64,000 nt of DNA from Gemmatimonadota bacterium. GTDB lineage: Bacteria > Gemmatimonadota > Gemmatimonadetes > Gemmatimonadales > GWC2-71-9. Below are positions 4,195 through 41,933 of this stretch, piece by piece. The translations under genes and the position numbers were made by a program. Positions within the stretch are counted from its first letter, which is position 1. Every line of letters starts with the position of its first letter. The notes under the pieces are model-generated. The model did no database searches, had not been told where the DNA came from, and worked only from the letters and a program-made list of their open reading frames with translations. The stretch spans positions 1,172 through 65,171 of the forward strand of contig JBLNGI010000198.1 of assembly GCA_050264615.1 (NCBI GenBank), written 5' to 3'.

Positions 4195-4509
4195 ATGCCG
4201 AAAGTGCTGACCGCGGCGCGCGTGCGCGTGCCCACTCAAAACGAGGCGGAGTACGTCAACACGCTGCGCGAGCTGAGTCAGTTCGCCGAGGCGCGGGGCC
4301 AGCGCATCTGGCTGTTCCGCAACGCCAAGGATCCGCGGCTGTTCATCGAGTTCTCGGAGAGCCCCACCGAGATGTCGCACCGCGCGCAGGCGTCGCGGCT
4401 GCCCGAGGAGATCAAGCTCGAGCGGCGGCTCCAGGCGCTTGCGACTTACGCGCCGGACGCGTGGGAGCTGTGGAGCGAGGTTCCCGTCGCCACGACGTCG
4501 CAGGCATAA
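4195..4509 (+). CDS. hypothetical protein (104 aa)
   Basis: ATG 4195 lies 2 nt after the E2 stop, in frame inside tracked ORF 3688-4509. Reads MPKVLTAARVRVPTQNEAEYVNTLRELSQF. GC-rich third codon positions. No motif recognised. Confidence 0.55.
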   Translation: MPKVLTAARVRVPTQNEAEYVNTLRELSQFAEARGQRIWLFRNAKDPRLFIEFSESPTEMSHRAQASRLPEEIKLERRLQALATYAPDAWELWSEVPVATTSQA

Positions 4510-4511
4510 CG

Positions 4512-4778
4512 ATGGTCCGCACGATCGTCGTCGCCGGGGAAACCTGGGAGGCCTATCCATCGGGTCGCGTCACGGTGTACGGCCGGGACCAATTCGGCCT
4601 GATCTTCGAGCGCGGCACGGGGGCGCAACGCACCCGGCGCATCACGCATTACTCCCCGACCGGATCTCGCGTCCCCGAGCGCTCGTTCGCCGAGCTGTCC
4701 GAACGCGAGGTCCTCGACTTGTTCCGCCAGTCACAGCCGGCCTGGACGGCGCCCGAGGTGAACTACGCCGCACGTTGA
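4512..4778 (+). CDS. hypothetical protein (88 aa)
   Basis: ATG 4512 lies 2 nt after the previous stop, inside tracked ORF 4122-4778. Reads MVRTIVVAGETWEAYPSGRVTVYG. No motif recognised. Confidence 0.5.
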   Translation: MVRTIVVAGETWEAYPSGRVTVYGRDQFGLIFERGTGAQRTRRITHYSPTGSRVPERSFAELSEREVLDLFRQSQPAWTAPEVNYAAR

Positions 4779-5655
4779 CCTGCATTGCCATTCGACGGCG
4801 TCCGACGGGGAGGCCGAGCCGGCGGAGGTCGCGCGGCACGCGCGCGCCGCCGGTCTCGCCGCGATCGCCCTCACCGATCACGACACGACCGACGGCGTCG
4901 CGGACGCGACGCGTGAAGCCGGCAGACTCGGCGTTCGGGTCGTTCCGGGCTGCGAATTCAGCGTGCGGGCGCCGTGGGGCGAGCTGCATGTGCTCGCCCT
5001 GTTCCTGCCGCAGGGAAACGAGCGGCTCCAGGACTTCCTGCGTGAGACGCGCGCGGCGCGGCGCGTGCGCGGCGAGCAGATGGTCGCCAAACTCCAGCGC
5101 CTGGGCGTCGCGATCGACCTCGCGGATGTGCAGGCGCAGCTGATCGGCGGCGATGACGGGGCACTGGGTCGGCCGCACGTGGCGCGCGCGCTCGTCGATT
5201 GCGGCGCGTGCGAGGACATCAGCGATGCGTTCCGCCGCTACCTCGGCCGCGGACGTGCGGCGTACGTAGAGAAGCCGCTGCCCAGGCTGTCGGAGGTCAC
5301 GGCGCTCGTTCACGATGTCGGCGGGCTCACCGTCGCCGCGCATCTCGGCGATCACGGCACCGAGGCGCAGCTTCGCATCTTTCAGGATCAGGGGCTCGAT
5401 TGCGTGGAAGTGCGCCATCCGAGCCACGTGCAGTCCGTCGAGCAACGGCTCACGAAGATCGCCGCGCGGCTCGGGCTCGGCATCAGCGGCGGGTCGGATT
5501 GGCACGGCGAGAGCGAGTACGGGGGCAATCACGCCCCGCTGGGCAGCATGCAGGTCCCCGAGGTGTGGCTGGAGCAGCTCGAGCGGCGCCTGGAGCAGGC
5601 AACCATGAAACATGGAGGCATAGGGAATGAGCGATCCGCTACCGATCGGCAGTAA
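4774..5655 (+). CDS. PHP-domain phosphoesterase (TrpH/YciV-like); start codon unresolved
   Basis: Tracked ORF 4963-5655 starts at GTG 4963. The same frame upstream encodes the PHP N-terminal motifs VDLHCHSTASDG (4774-) and AIALTDHDTTDG. An in-frame stop lies at 4759-4761, and there is no ATG/GTG/TTG between 4762 and 4962. Confidence 0.75.
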   Translation, partial: VDLHCHSTASDGEAEPAEVARHARAAGLAAIALTDHDTTDGVADATREAGRLGVRVVPGCEFSVRAPWGELHVLALFLPQGNERLQDFLRETRAARRVRGEQMVAKLQRLGVAIDLADVQAQLIGGDDGALGRPHVARALVDCGACEDISDAFRRYLGRGRAAYVEKPLPRLSEVTALVHDVGGLTVAAHLGDHGTEAQLRIFQDQGLDCVEVRHPSHVQSVEQRLTKIAARLGLGISGGSDWHGESEYGGNHAPLGSMQVPEVWLEQLERRLEQATMKHGGIGNERSATDRQ

Positions 5656-6064
5656 AGCGCCAGCGTTCAGCGCGCCGGCGTCCGACGGCAAAACCTACGC
5701 GCTCGCCGACCTGCTCAAGCAGGGAGGCGTGGTCCTCGTCTTCTATCCGGGCAACAACACCCCCGGCTGAAACCGCCAACTCTCCGCCGTGCGCGATGAG
5801 ATCGCCAAGTTTCAATCCGCCAAGATGCAGCCGCTGGGCGTGAACCCCGCGAGCATCGAGAGCCATCAGAACTACGTGGAAAAGTTTCGCTTCACCTTCC
5901 CACTGCTCTCGGATCCCGAGCGCGCGATCGCCCGCGCCTACCACGCGCTCAAGGACGACGGCAAGGGGATTCAACGCACCGTGTACGTGATCGGGTCCGA
6001 CGGCACGGTGCGGTTCGCGCAACGTGGCGCTCCACCCGTGGACGACATCGTCGGTGCCCGCTGA
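5627..6064 (+). CDS. bcp: Bcp/PrxQ-type peroxiredoxin with in-frame TGA (probable selenocysteine) at the peroxidatic position
   Basis: ATG 5627. Reads MSDPLPIGSKAPAFSAPASDGKTYALADLLKQGGVVLVFYPGNNTPG-[TGA 5768-5770]-NRQLSAVRDE, then continues in frame into tracked ORF 5789-6064 (FTFPLLSD, GKGIQRTVYVIGSDG). It aligns to the E. coli Bcp motif [11 protein letters not shown] with TGA opposite Cys. Confidence 0.7.
5791..5810 (+). promoter_or_regulatory. candidate SECIS-like hairpin downstream of the in-frame UGA
   Basis: GCGAU (5793-5797) - loop GAG - AUCGC (5801-5805). C5792-G5809 and G5791-U5810 may extend the stem across a 3-nt bulge. The loop starts 27 nt after the UGA and contains G. The stem is short, so this is tentative. 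Confidence 0.3.
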
Positions 6065-7515: not shown

Positions 7516-8310
7516 GTGGTGATCGGCGGCGGGTGCTACGGCACGTTTTACGCCGCGCAGCTCGCCAAAGCCAAAGCGCGCGGGAAGACCGACTATCGCG
7601 CCGTGATCGTCGTCGATCGCAATCCCGATTGCCAGGCGCGCCGTGAGCTCGGCGAAGCTCCGGACCGACAGTTTGTCACCTCGGATTGGTCGGCGTTCTT
7701 CGACCAATTCCTACCGGCCGACGGGCCGTCCAGCCGCCCGGCCGGCGATCAGATCGTCCCATCCCCCCACATGCCGCACCTCATGTTCGAATGGGTGCTG
7801 CGGCGCGCGCGGCAGCGCTGGCCCGGACGCGCGGTCTCCGTCGTTGCGGTGCCCGGCACGCTTCCCACGCCGTACGACCGGCCGGGCGGCACCACCGACC
7901 AGACCCGCTACGTCTCGTGGGCCGACTGGATCTGCCCCACCCATTGTATCGAGCCGGCGTTGTGCCCGGCGATCAGCGCGCCCCGGACCTGGGAGATGTC
8001 GGATACGGTGCGCGTGCTCGCGGAGCAGCTGCGCGCCACCGGTCGGCCGGTGCGCGGACCCGCGTTGTTCGTGTGCAAGCATCAGGTCTTTGGCGTGGGA
8101 ATGTTCTCGGCCGACTCGGTGCGCGCCGGGGATCAGCTGGTCGCCGAAGCGGGTGCCGCCGCGGAAGCGGAAGTACTGGTCGGCACGATCTCCAGTTGCC
8201 ACGGGGCGCTGAACCTGTTGACGGTCGGACCGTCGGACGGGCGGTCGGACGGGTTGATTCGCGGGCAGGCGCGTCCGACCCTCCCACAGTCCGACCGACC
8301 GACGTCATGA
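7516..8310 (+). CDS. hypothetical protein with N-terminal GxGxxG dinucleotide-binding motif and a CPxHCxEPxxCP motif
   Basis: ORF 7516-8310. Contains VVIGGGCYGTFYAAQL and WICPTHCIEPALCPAI. GC3 is high. The last ~28 codons are encoded by the GTCGGAC repeat element. Confidence 0.6.
   Translation: MVIGGGCYGTFYAAQLAKAKARGKTDYRAVIVVDRNPDCQARRELGEAPDRQFVTSDWSAFFDQFLPADGPSSRPAGDQIVPSPHMPHLMFEWVLRRARQRWPGRAVSVVAVPGTLPTPYDRPGGTTDQTRYVSWADWICPTHCIEPALCPAISAPRTWEMSDTVRVLAEQLRATGRPVRGPALFVCKHQVFGVGMFSADSVRAGDQLVAEAGAAAEAEVLVGTISSCHGALNLLTVGPSDGRSDGLIRGQARPTLPQSDRPTS
8221..8303. repeat. heptamer repeat palindrome (GTCGGAC x3 / GTCCGAC x2) at a gene junction
   Basis: GTCGGAC at 8224-8230, 8232-8238 and 8244-8250. 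Inverted GTCCGAC at 8273-8279 and 8289-8295. The best stem is GGTCGGACG with its complement in 8271-8280. Confidence 0.6.
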
Positions 8311-8651
8311 GTCCCGAGGATCGCCGCCGCTACCTGGACCACGCCCGCGAGCTGTTTAATGCCGGCGAGTTTTGGCTGGCGCACGAAGCGTTGGAAACAG
8401 TCTGGCGTTCTATTATTAAGGAAGATGAAGCGCGGGTCTGGCAGGGGTTTATTCAAGCTGCCGCGGCGCTGCTGCATCAGGCTCGTGGGAACCGGCACGG
8501 AACGGTCGTCGTTGGAGCGGCGGCCCTCGAGAAGCTGGCCGGACCACAGAGGCCGGAGATCGAGTTCGAAATGGTCGACTTTCGCGCGCAGTTGCTGCGC
8601 GCCCTCGCGGGGGAAGGGAATCCCCCCCGACTGGAATTCACGAGCTCATGA
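8307..8651 (+). CDS. DUF309-like protein
   Basis: ATG 8307 (ATGA overlap with the previous stop), inside tracked ORF 7686-8651. Reads FNAGEFWLAHEALETVWR, typical of DUF309. Confidence 0.7.
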   Translation: MSPEDRRRYLDHARELFNAGEFWLAHEALETVWRSIIKEDEARVWQGFIQAAAALLHQARGNRHGTVVVGAAALEKLAGPQRPEIEFEMVDFRAQLLRALAGEGNPPRLEFTSS

Positions 8652-9619
8652 CAACGCGTGCTGCACTCGTCTACGACGTGATCATCGTCGGTGCCGGTCC
8701 CGCGGGACTGTGCGCCGCGATGTACGCGGGCCGCGGGATGCTCAGGTCCGTGACCATCGAGCGGGGTGCTCCCGGCGGCGAGCTGCTCAACACGGATCTG
8801 ATCGAAGACTACATCGGGTTCGAGAGTATCAAGGGCTGGGAGCTCGCCAAGAAGATGACCGAGCACGCCAAGAAATTCGGCGCCGAAATCGTCACCGATA
8901 CCGTGGAGCGGATCCGGCGGGACGCGGACGGGTGGTTCGACGTCGAGACCGCGCGCGGCGACACCTATCGCAGTCCGGCGGTCATCCTCACCGCCGGTGG
9001 CACCCCCGTGAAGCTCGGCATCCCCGGTGAAAAGGAATACGCGGGGAAGGGCGTCTCCTATTGCGCGGTGTGCGATGGCGCCTTCTTCAAGGGGGAGCAC
9101 CTGGCGGTGGTCGGCGGCGGTGACGCCGCCGTCGAGGAGGCCGACTATCTCACCCGGTACGCCAGCAAGGTGACCCTCGTGCATCGCCGCGAGGAGTTCC
9201 GCGCCTCGAAGATTCTTCAGGAGCGGACCTTTGCCAATCCCAAAATCGAGGTCATCAAGAACACCGTCGTGCCGGAGATCGTGGGCAACGAGAAGGGCGT
9301 TACCCACGCGGTGCTCGAGAACAAGGTGAGCGGGGAAAGGTCCAATCTCGATGTGGGCGGCGTGTTCATCTTCGCGGGATTCAAGCCGAACACGCAAATC
9401 GTCGAAGGGCACGTGGACCACGACGCGGGCGGCTATCTCATCACCGACAACAAGATGATGACGTCGATGGCCGGCCTGTTCGCGGCGGGCGACGTGCGCA
9501 GCCAGCTCACCCGCCAGATCACCACCGCGGTGGGTGACGCGACGACGGCAGCGATTGCGGTGGAGAAGTACCTCAAGGCCCTGCGCGAGCAAACTGACGG
9601 CAAGCCGGTCAAGGTATGA
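8648..9619 (+). CDS. trxB: thioredoxin-disulfide reductase
   Basis: ORF 8648-9619. Contains VIIVGAGPAGL (FAD), redox CAVCDG, and GGGDAAVEEA (NADPH). Confidence 0.92.
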   Translation: MTTRAALVYDVIIVGAGPAGLCAAMYAGRGMLRSVTIERGAPGGELLNTDLIEDYIGFESIKGWELAKKMTEHAKKFGAEIVTDTVERIRRDADGWFDVETARGDTYRSPAVILTAGGTPVKLGIPGEKEYAGKGVSYCAVCDGAFFKGEHLAVVGGGDAAVEEADYLTRYASKVTLVHRREEFRASKILQERTFANPKIEVIKNTVVPEIVGNEKGVTHAVLENKVSGERSNLDVGGVFIFAGFKPNTQIVEGHVDHDAGGYLITDNKMMTSMAGLFAAGDVRSQLTRQITTAVGDATTAAIAVEKYLKALREQTDGKPVKV

Positions 9620-17500: not shown

Positions 17501-17508
17501 ACGTTCAG

Positions 17509-17592
17509 TGCCGAAGGGGGGACTCGAACCCCCACGGGCTTGCGCCCACTGGCTCCTGAAGCCAGCGCGTCTACCAGTTCCACCACTTCGGC
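17509..17592 (-). tRNA. tRNA-Leu (anticodon CAG)
   Basis: The reverse complement reads GCCGAAGTGGTGGAACTGGTAGACGCGCTGGCTTCAGGAGCCAGTGGGCGCAAGCCCGTGGGGGTTCGAGTCCCCCCTTCGGCA. Acceptor GCCGAAG/CTTCGGC. Anticodon stem CTGGC/GCCAG with loop TTCAGGA. Long variable arm. T-loop GGTTCGAGTCC. CCA is not encoded. Confidence 0.9.
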
Positions 17593-41169: not shown

Positions 41170-41933
41170 TGACGAGGCGGCAGATCGTCGGCATGCTCGC
41201 ATGTGTTGTGCTGGGCGCCGGCGCCGCGTGCGGTGGTCCAAAACAGGCGAAGCCTGCTCCGGTCGTGCAGCCCGAAGCCGAGCTGGCGCGCGGCATGCAG
41301 CTGTTCCGGAAAGGGCAGTTCCGCAAGGCGCAAGTCGTCTTTCAACGGCTGACGTTCGAGTTCAGCGTGACGCAGGACGAGCTCGCACAGGCGCACTACT
41401 ATGTCGCCGAGTGCAACTTCCAGCTCGGGGACTACGTCCAGGCTGCCTCGGACTTCCGAAAAGTTGCGGACGAGTTTTCGACCACGCAGTACGCCCCGAC
41501 CGCGCTGCTGCGCGCCGGCGATTCGAATCTGCGGTTGTGGCACCGTCCCGAGCTCGACCCCAGCTATGGCGAGACCGCGCTCGCGATCTATCAGGAGCTC
41601 GCGGGCCGCTATCCCGACAGTGACGCCGCGGGGCGCGCGCGGCTGCACGTCCGCCGGCTCGAGAACCAGTTTGCGGAAAAGGCGTACAAGACCGGCATCT
41701 TTTACATGCGACGCAAGGCGTTCGACTCGGCGATCATTTATTTCAAGGATGTGATCGCGAACTATCCCAACGCGCAGCGCGCGCCCGACGCACTGCTGCG
41801 CCTGGTCGACAGCTATCGCGCGATCGGCTACACGCAGGAGGTGCAGGAGACCTGCGAGCATTTGCGCCGCTTCTACCCGAATGCGTCGCGGCTCCAGGCG
41901 AGCTGTCCCGCGCCTCCGGCGACTCCCACCTGA
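41169..41933 (+). CDS. bamD: outer membrane protein assembly factor BamD (YfiO-like lipoprotein)
   Basis: ORF 41169-41933. Lipobox GAGAAC. Contains AHYYVAECNFQLGDYVQAASDF and YPNAQRAPDALLRL. Confidence 0.8.
   Translation: MTRRQIVGMLACVVLGAGAACGGPKQAKPAPVVQPEAELARGMQLFRKGQFRKAQVVFQRLTFEFSVTQDELAQAHYYVAECNFQLGDYVQAASDFRKVADEFSTTQYAPTALLRAGDSNLRLWHRPELDPSYGETALAIYQELAGRYPDSDAAGRARLHVRRLENQFAEKAYKTGIFYMRRKAFDSAIIYFKDVIANYPNAQRAPDALLRLVDSYRAIGYTQEVQETCEHLRRFYPNASRLQASCPAPPATPT

Follow-up and report, generated by a model that had tools for sequence, protein, structure and literature searches.

Does a TGA codon in the middle of a bacterial peroxiredoxin gene end translation, or does it encode the catalytic residue itself? 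This question is raised by positions 5627-6064 (+ strand) of the window, that is, of the whole 64-kb stretch of Gemmatimonadota DNA analysed here. The original prediction, made from the sequence alone, was that this region is one peroxiredoxin (Prx) gene in which an in-frame TGA occupies the position of the peroxidatic cysteine (Cys). We conclude that 5627-6064 is a single intact gene for a small, BCP/PrxQ-like antioxidant Prx. The peroxidatic residue of its 145-residue product is very probably selenocysteine (Sec), inserted at the UGA at 5768-5770.

The gene and its relatives

The Prx gene (5627..6064, + strand, 145 codons and a stop; BCP/PrxQ-like and predicted to be of the 1-Sec type) starts with an ATG located 8 nucleotides (nt) downstream of a Shine-Dalgarno-like GGAGG (5614..5618, + strand, read directly from the sequence). 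It ends at its true stop codon, which is also a TGA (6062..6064, + strand). Between the two, the sole interruption of the frame is the TGA at codon 48 (5768..5770, + strand), around which the peptide reads ...VVLVFYPGNNTPG*NRQLSAVRDE.... The two open reading frames (ORFs) on either side, one of 47 amino acids (aa; 5627-5770) and one of 91 aa with a GTG start (5789-6064), share one frame.

The read-through product matches the Pfam family AhpC/TSA (PF00578) over profile positions 1-123 of 124 (E 2.6e-34; 118.3 bits, cutoff 26). All of its best PDB matches are BCPs, and the nearest solved structures are the BCP-type peroxiredoxins 5enu, 3drn and 2cx3. The TGA column corresponds to the Cys of TPGC in 78 full-length homologs, as well as in the BCP structures 5enu and 2cx3. 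Translation and homolog alignment define the active-site motif as P41-G-N-N-T45-P-G-U48 (PxxxTxxU, 5747..5770, + strand), with the inferred Sec codon, kept as TGA in relatives and replaced by Cys in homologs, as its last position. P41, T45, P46 and G47 are invariant in the 83 sequences compared. The conserved peroxiredoxin active-site arginine, Arg117 (codon at 5975..5977, + strand), aligns with the Arg of GIERS in 5enu and is invariant in alignment A1 and in 83 DNA sequences. Apart from position 48, the probable Sec, the whole 145-residue product is free of cysteine. The end-to-end PF00578 match and the TPGC alignment agree with the claim that the two halves belong to one Prx interrupted at its peroxidatic Cys.

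DNA of relatives was obtained from 80 species-representative genomes (all of them Gemmatimonadales/Gemmatimonadota metagenome-assembled genomes), 80 metagenome contigs and two further contigs. Codon 48 is TGA in all 82 genome-derived loci and in 78 of the 80 metagenome loci, which makes 161 TGA-form genes with the window's own gene included. Identity is as low as ~71%, and these genes contain no further stop or frameshift, with the single exception of contig L049. Nei-Gojobori estimates from 1,500 random pairs gave a ratio of non-synonymous to synonymous substitution rates (dN/dS) of 0.171 for codons 2-47 and 0.169 for codons 59-140, at a dS of ~1.1. Equally low values on both sides of the TGA indicate that both halves are maintained as protein in one frame. 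The one damaged copy is that of L049 (4959-5339), where the Prx frame breaks down past residue 127 and the reading continues, out of frame, into the SDR region that follows; the cause is either a deletion or an assembly artefact.

Sequence constraint downstream of the UGA

Third codon positions are nearly invariant in the TGA forms from the TGA through codon 58 (5768-5800 in the window, UGAAACCGCCAACUCUCCGCCGUGCGCGAUGAG). Third-position entropy is ~0 in codons 49-58, compared with 1-1.9 bits at equally invariant amino acids elsewhere, and dS in these codons is 0.11, ten times lower than in the flanks (~1.1). Only four sites in this stretch vary among the 161 TGA forms, in codons 50, 51, 57 and 58: CGC>CGT/CGA (12), CAA>CAG (5), GAT or GAC (about half each) and a single GAG>GAA. 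Synonymous sites are also conserved in the 9-nt spacer that leads from the UGA to the hairpin described below (AACCGCCAA, 5771..5779, + strand). It includes the rare Gln codon CAA, used in 156 of the 161 Sec forms and in 2 of 9 Cys forms, whereas CAG is dominant elsewhere in the gene.

The Cys forms, nine distinct orthologs, have TGC or TGT as codon 48. Across the peptide NRQLSAVRDE they carry 1-5 synonymous and 0-2 non-synonymous codon changes relative to the TGA-form consensus, and at codon 55 (Val55, whose GUG lies in the hairpin loop) they have GCC, GTA, GCG, GTC or GTT. The frozen codons are altered in 8 of the 9 Cys forms, compared with one of the 161 Sec forms (Fisher p = 5.5e-12, not corrected for phylogeny). 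The constraint thus acts on the RNA and goes together with the TGA. The prediction had proposed looking among orthologues for Cys codons, or for TGA codons followed by a conserved structure; both kinds of orthologue exist, and the RNA element is frozen in the TGA forms only.

The consensus fold of the 161 TGA forms contains a lone helix, CUC-UC-CGC[CGUGC]GCG-AY-GAG, which spans +13 to +33 when counted from the first base of the UGA. In the window, this candidate bacterial selenocysteine insertion sequence (bSECIS) is found at 5780..5800 (+ strand; CUC-UC-CGC[CGUGC]GCG-AU-GAG), with its loop at 5788-5792 and G22/U23 at 5789-5790. An alternative fold of equivalent energy has 8 base pairs (bp), two single-base bulges and a CGU triloop. 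Y30, the one variable base of the hairpin, stays unpaired in either fold. In 160 of the 161 genes each of the six core pairs is canonical, and in all 161 the hairpin is part of the minimum free energy (MFE) fold of the segment from the UGA to +45. The GUG of the loop is the GTG chosen by ORF callers as the start of the 91-aa fragment.

According to the bSECIS consensus (PMC13188914, Fig. 2 legend), the loop has 3-9 nt and the upper stem 4-16 bp, the UGA-to-loop distance is 16-37 nt and the MFE is <= -7.5 kcal/mol; the first or second base of the loop is a G, and the next base is usually G or U. The candidate hairpin falls within these ranges: its loop has 5 or 3 nt, its stem of 6-8 bp is broken by an internal loop or by bulges, and the spacing is 17 nt. 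G is the second base of the loop and is followed by U (G22-U23). The MFE of the UGA-to-+45 segment is -13.3 kcal/mol in the window and averages -11.4 kcal/mol over the 161 genes, 89% of which are at or below -7.5 kcal/mol.

As in the SECIS of Escherichia coli fdhF, the hairpin follows closely on the UGA, within the coding sequence, and exposes a G followed by a U in a small apical loop. The essential G and U of the fdhF element are at +23/+24, and the loop G-U of the window, at +22/+23, is within one base of this geometry. Unlike fdhF and the bacterial SECIS consensus, the helix in the window is shorter and interrupted (6-8 bp in total) and is without a conserved lower stem.

Two other structures were considered and set aside. 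The MFE fold of the window has a long lower stem, UGAAAC/GUUUCA, that is not conserved: A3 stands opposite C45 in most relatives. The hairpin first put forward as the SECIS, GCGAU-GAG-AUCGC, is indeed present in the sequence at 5793-5805, but its five pairs are possible in only 23 of the 161 genes. It spans codons 59-60, which are variable (ATC and ATG about equally frequent), and it competes with the conserved helix at 5780-5800. It is therefore rejected as a SECIS.

A 17-nt hairpin core, CTCTCCGCCGTGCGCGA, also occurs as an exact copy in three loci with a Cys codon (TGC/TGT) at position 48: L163 (830-846), L164 (10154-10170) and L165 (3452-3468). These represent two distinct genes, one in L163 and the other in both L164 and L165. 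The core in these Cys forms looks like a relic of a recent Sec-to-Cys reversion, although it could instead be a pre-adapted hairpin. No other copy of the core following a TGA was found outside the Prx gene in the window and the retrieved loci. Separately, the invariant post-UGA stretch is the junction of a mosaic gene in L036 (10001-10432), in which the N-terminal half is identical to that of L086 and the C-terminal half to that of L004. The mosaic arose by recombination or else is a chimera that the invariant 33 nt seeded during assembly.

Decoding of the UGA

On this comparative evidence, the UGA is conserved, its two flanks are translated in one frame, and both a decoding event and a constraint on the RNA are demonstrated. 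The conserved TGA, the syntenic Cys orthologs and the RNA element restricted to TGA forms are all in line with the predicted Cys/Sec pair at the peroxidatic position.

Peroxiredoxins with a TxxU motif are an established family of bacterial selenoproteins (Zhang 2006 PMC1794560; Peng 2016 PMC5029168; 2026 review PMC13188914). Twelve genes and five inferred Cys-to-Sec events were described in 2006 (PMC1794560), 91 genes from 78 organisms in 2016 (PMC5029168), and PxxxTxxU is cited as the defining motif in the 2026 review (PMC13188914). The window protein shares with this family the PF00578 domain, a predicted U at the peroxidatic position of PxxxTxxU, the existence of Cys orthologs, a candidate SECIS in the coding region directly 3' of the UGA, and a dynamic interconversion of Sec and Cys. 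It differs from the described members in its host lineage, as soil Gemmatimonadales are not mentioned in the accessible texts. Within the family, its subfamily appears to be BCP/PrxQ-like, with 145 aa and no resolving Cys.

The best sequence matches are to BCP/PrxQ proteins (E. coli Bcp, NF006960; 5enu, 3drn and 2cx3), with which the window protein shares the TPGC, FPLLSD-like and Arg motifs and a similar size; the two best NCBIfam models, NF006960 (69 bits, cutoff 140) and NF053650 (62.8 bits, cutoff 260), both score below cutoff. It departs from these proteins in having a predicted Sec in place of the Cys. Atypical 2-Cys BCPs such as E. coli Bcp have a resolving Cys five residues past the peroxidatic one, whereas the window protein has no second Cys, which makes it a variant with a 1-Cys-type mechanism. 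A second Cys is found at +6 (CNRQLSC) in some Cys orthologs (L084 at codon 54; proteins P0004 and P0005) and could be a resolving Cys. In all Sec forms codon 54 is fixed as GCC (Ala), because it lies within the stem of the candidate SECIS.

PrxU, which we take to be AhpC/Prx1-like, has been described in Eubacterium acidaminophilum. It resembles the window protein, as predicted here, in being a Sec-containing Prx that is presumably thioredoxin-dependent. However, the window protein scores only 43.5 bits against the PrxU model NF040737 (cutoff 270) and is therefore not a PrxU member; the profile has 233 positions, compared with 145 residues here. The Gemmatimonadales Prx is a genuine Sec/Cys pair that falls within a selenoprotein family already known but differs from the curated PrxU type.

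In the mechanism that we propose, SelB carrying Sec-tRNA(Sec) would bind the hairpin at 5780-5800, whose apical loop would present G22-U23 to SelB 17 nt after the UGA, and, with the UGA in the A site, would outcompete RF2. Thr45 and Arg117 would activate the selenolate, which would then reduce the peroxide and become a selenenic acid. Since the protein has no other Cys, the selenenic acid would be recycled by an external thiol protein, most likely thioredoxin, through a mixed selenenylsulfide. Thioredoxin would in turn be kept reduced by TrxB, encoded at 8648-9619. This trxB gene for thioredoxin-disulfide reductase (8648..9619, + strand; TIGR01292, 361 bits, cutoff 343) sits 2.6 kb downstream of the Prx gene, within a conserved gene string, and its product is likely to be part of the Prx reducing system.

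Several points weigh against decoding as Sec. The identity of the residue inserted at the UGA is deduced by analogy with known selenoproteins. The hairpin by itself is short (only -5.4 kcal/mol), and the single sequence of the window is not distinct from its shuffled versions (z = -1 to -2). No covariation supports the pairing among the 161 TGA forms, because the hairpin never varies. No Rfam family matched at the gathering threshold; a permissive-mode match to CRISPR-DR9 (E = 1.2) is a chance match. Neither selA, selB, selD nor tRNA-Sec is found in the 64-kb window or in the related loci, which represent a small part of each genome. Specifically, tblastn with E. coli SelA, SelB and SelD (queries confirmed as full-length against PDB 8uzw, 5lzb and 3u0o) gave no matches in the window and 174 loci (1.76 Mb in total). 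As these loci are mostly one neighbourhood repeated, this negative result says little about whole genomes, and we infer that the Sec machinery is present in the genomes with TGA forms. Finally, no Sec use by Gemmatimonadetes/Gemmatimonadota was found in the accessible literature or supplements. BSepDB, for which >64,000 genomes were scanned for known families, may already list Gemmatimonadales Prx genes.

The only RNA gene detected in the window is a tRNA-Leu(CAG) (17508-17592, - strand). ARAGORN reported a tRNA-SeC(tca) in one of the related loci (L057, 13192-13268), which we reject: the 77-nt candidate falls within an ORF of the GGDEF/EAL type (670 aa), and Rfam recognises it neither as a tRNA nor as a tRNA-Sec. 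This false positive is worth remembering for screens of high-GC genomes.

Alternatively, the residue inserted at the UGA with its hairpin might be Cys or some other amino acid and not Sec, with decoding by a selC*-type tRNA-Cys(UCA) and its own SelB*/CysRS*, or by an allo-tRNA suppressor. Such systems exist and translate selenoprotein UGA codons as Cys (PMC5389517), no Sec machinery was found in the window or related loci, and the comparative evidence proves that decoding occurs but not which residue is inserted. However, selC* was reported from anaerobic Firmicutes, Thermodesulfobacteria, Nitrospirae and Proteobacteria, and allo-tRNAs from Clostridia, Proteobacteria and Acidobacteria, and neither is reported for Gemmatimonadota (PMC5389517). 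No selC*-type tRNA or allo-tRNA is present in the window or the retrieved loci. Moreover, a TGC codon would suffice for the insertion of Cys without a costly 33-nt constraint, and yet the TGA is kept in 161 lineages. We consider decoding as Cys or another residue unlikely.

Still less probable is that the TGA is a true stop, giving a 47-aa peptide and, by re-initiation at GTG 5789, a 91-aa C-terminal fragment that together form a split or truncated Prx-like protein. Gene callers predict exactly these two ORFs, and the GTG at codon 55 is invariant in the TGA forms. However, a split protein would be without its catalytic residue, although the PxxxTxx just ahead of the stop stays invariant. Codons 49-54, between the stop and the GTG, encode the same peptide (NRQLSA) as in the Cys orthologs, which are single continuous proteins. 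No Shine-Dalgarno sequence precedes GTG 5789 (the upstream sequence is CUCUCCGCC), and the nucleotide freezing continues 3' of the GTG, as fits a hairpin and not a start site. A lone in-frame stop in one sequence typically looks like decay or error, but a decaying pseudogene or a sequencing or assembly error is refuted by the same TGA in 161 independent assemblies, 80 species representatives among them, a dN/dS of 0.17 on each side, and the absence outside L049 of the scattered stops and frameshifts that the prediction had named as the mark of a pseudogene.

A reassigned genetic code is excluded, since TGA is the ordinary stop of 23 of the 44 coding-like frames in the window, the Prx gene included. 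When the whole 64 kb were scanned, a single further TGA was flanked by coding signal on either side (41931-41933, + strand). It is not a second read-through case: it is the normal stop of an upstream gene, after which a nadD-like gene continues directly in the same frame. This arrangement mimics a read-through candidate in scans based on GC content at third codon positions.

Evolution, annotation and gene neighbourhood

The Cys orthologs located on long contigs have the same gene string as the window. It comprises 2-oxoacid dehydrogenase E1/E2, two small ORFs, a PHP-like gene, the Prx and two SDRs, and continues with an AF_1314_C-like gene, DUF309, thioredoxin reductase and a metallo-beta-lactamase. 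Synteny of this string is common to the Sec and Cys lineages. In a neighbour-joining tree of 231 distinct proteins, Cys forms are at the root and a single large Sec clade contains 152 sequences. About 25 Cys forms are nested at several points inside this clade, and parsimony requires at least nine state changes. The tree is rough and only indicative, being built from a 145-residue protein; its topology fits a single Cys-to-Sec origin followed by repeated reversions. One full-length protein of the Cys clade, P0035, reads TPGR, which puts an Arg in the catalytic column. This singleton comes from a read assembly and represents either an error or a variant without activity.

In a protein search, all close relatives (81-98% identity) turned out to be recorded as C-terminal fragments of 91 aa, whereas the more distant relatives (51-77% identity) are full-length (147-152 aa) and have Cys at the TGA column. 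The public gene calls that we examined consist of the 47-aa and 91-aa fragments, labelled peroxiredoxin Q/BCP, so the gene is split by ORF callers as the original prediction had anticipated. The window's own 91-aa ORF has no record in the assembly index. As a consequence of such calls, the catalytic residue is lost and the Sec trait of these genomes goes unnoticed.

Mechanistically, this Prx is ordinary and reveals no new mechanism. Its interest lies in the conservation of a predicted selenoenzyme, present in many contigs from soil metagenomes and in no fewer than 80 Gemmatimonadales genomes at species level, and in the repeated switching from Sec to Cys. The two forms provide a clean natural experiment, in which one peptide is encoded both under the RNA constraint and free of it, and which pinpoints a minimal, sequence-invariant candidate SECIS that is useful to SECIS models and engineering.

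Soil Gemmatimonadales are generally regarded as aerobic. We tentatively suggest, as a possibility that we hold to be less than even, that they keep the Sec apparatus order-wide largely for this one 1-Sec BCP-type Prx, using an unusually sequence-specific 33-nt SECIS, and that lineages losing the trait revert to Cys and leave a relic hairpin. In a rarer variant, the element may drive SelB*-type insertion of Cys and not of Sec. If order-wide retention of Sec were true, it would contradict the view that aerobic bacteria rarely retain selenoproteins, and selenium would be a relevant micronutrient for a major soil phylum.

Two further parts of the gene string are conserved in synteny and have no Pfam match in the window copy. 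The first consists of the two small ORFs (~104 and 89 aa; 4195-4778, + strand) between E2 and the PHP-like gene, which are syntenic across the Sec and Cys lineages. The second is a 264-aa ORF downstream of the SDR pair (7516-8310, + strand), whose counterpart in relatives carries the label AF_1314_C.

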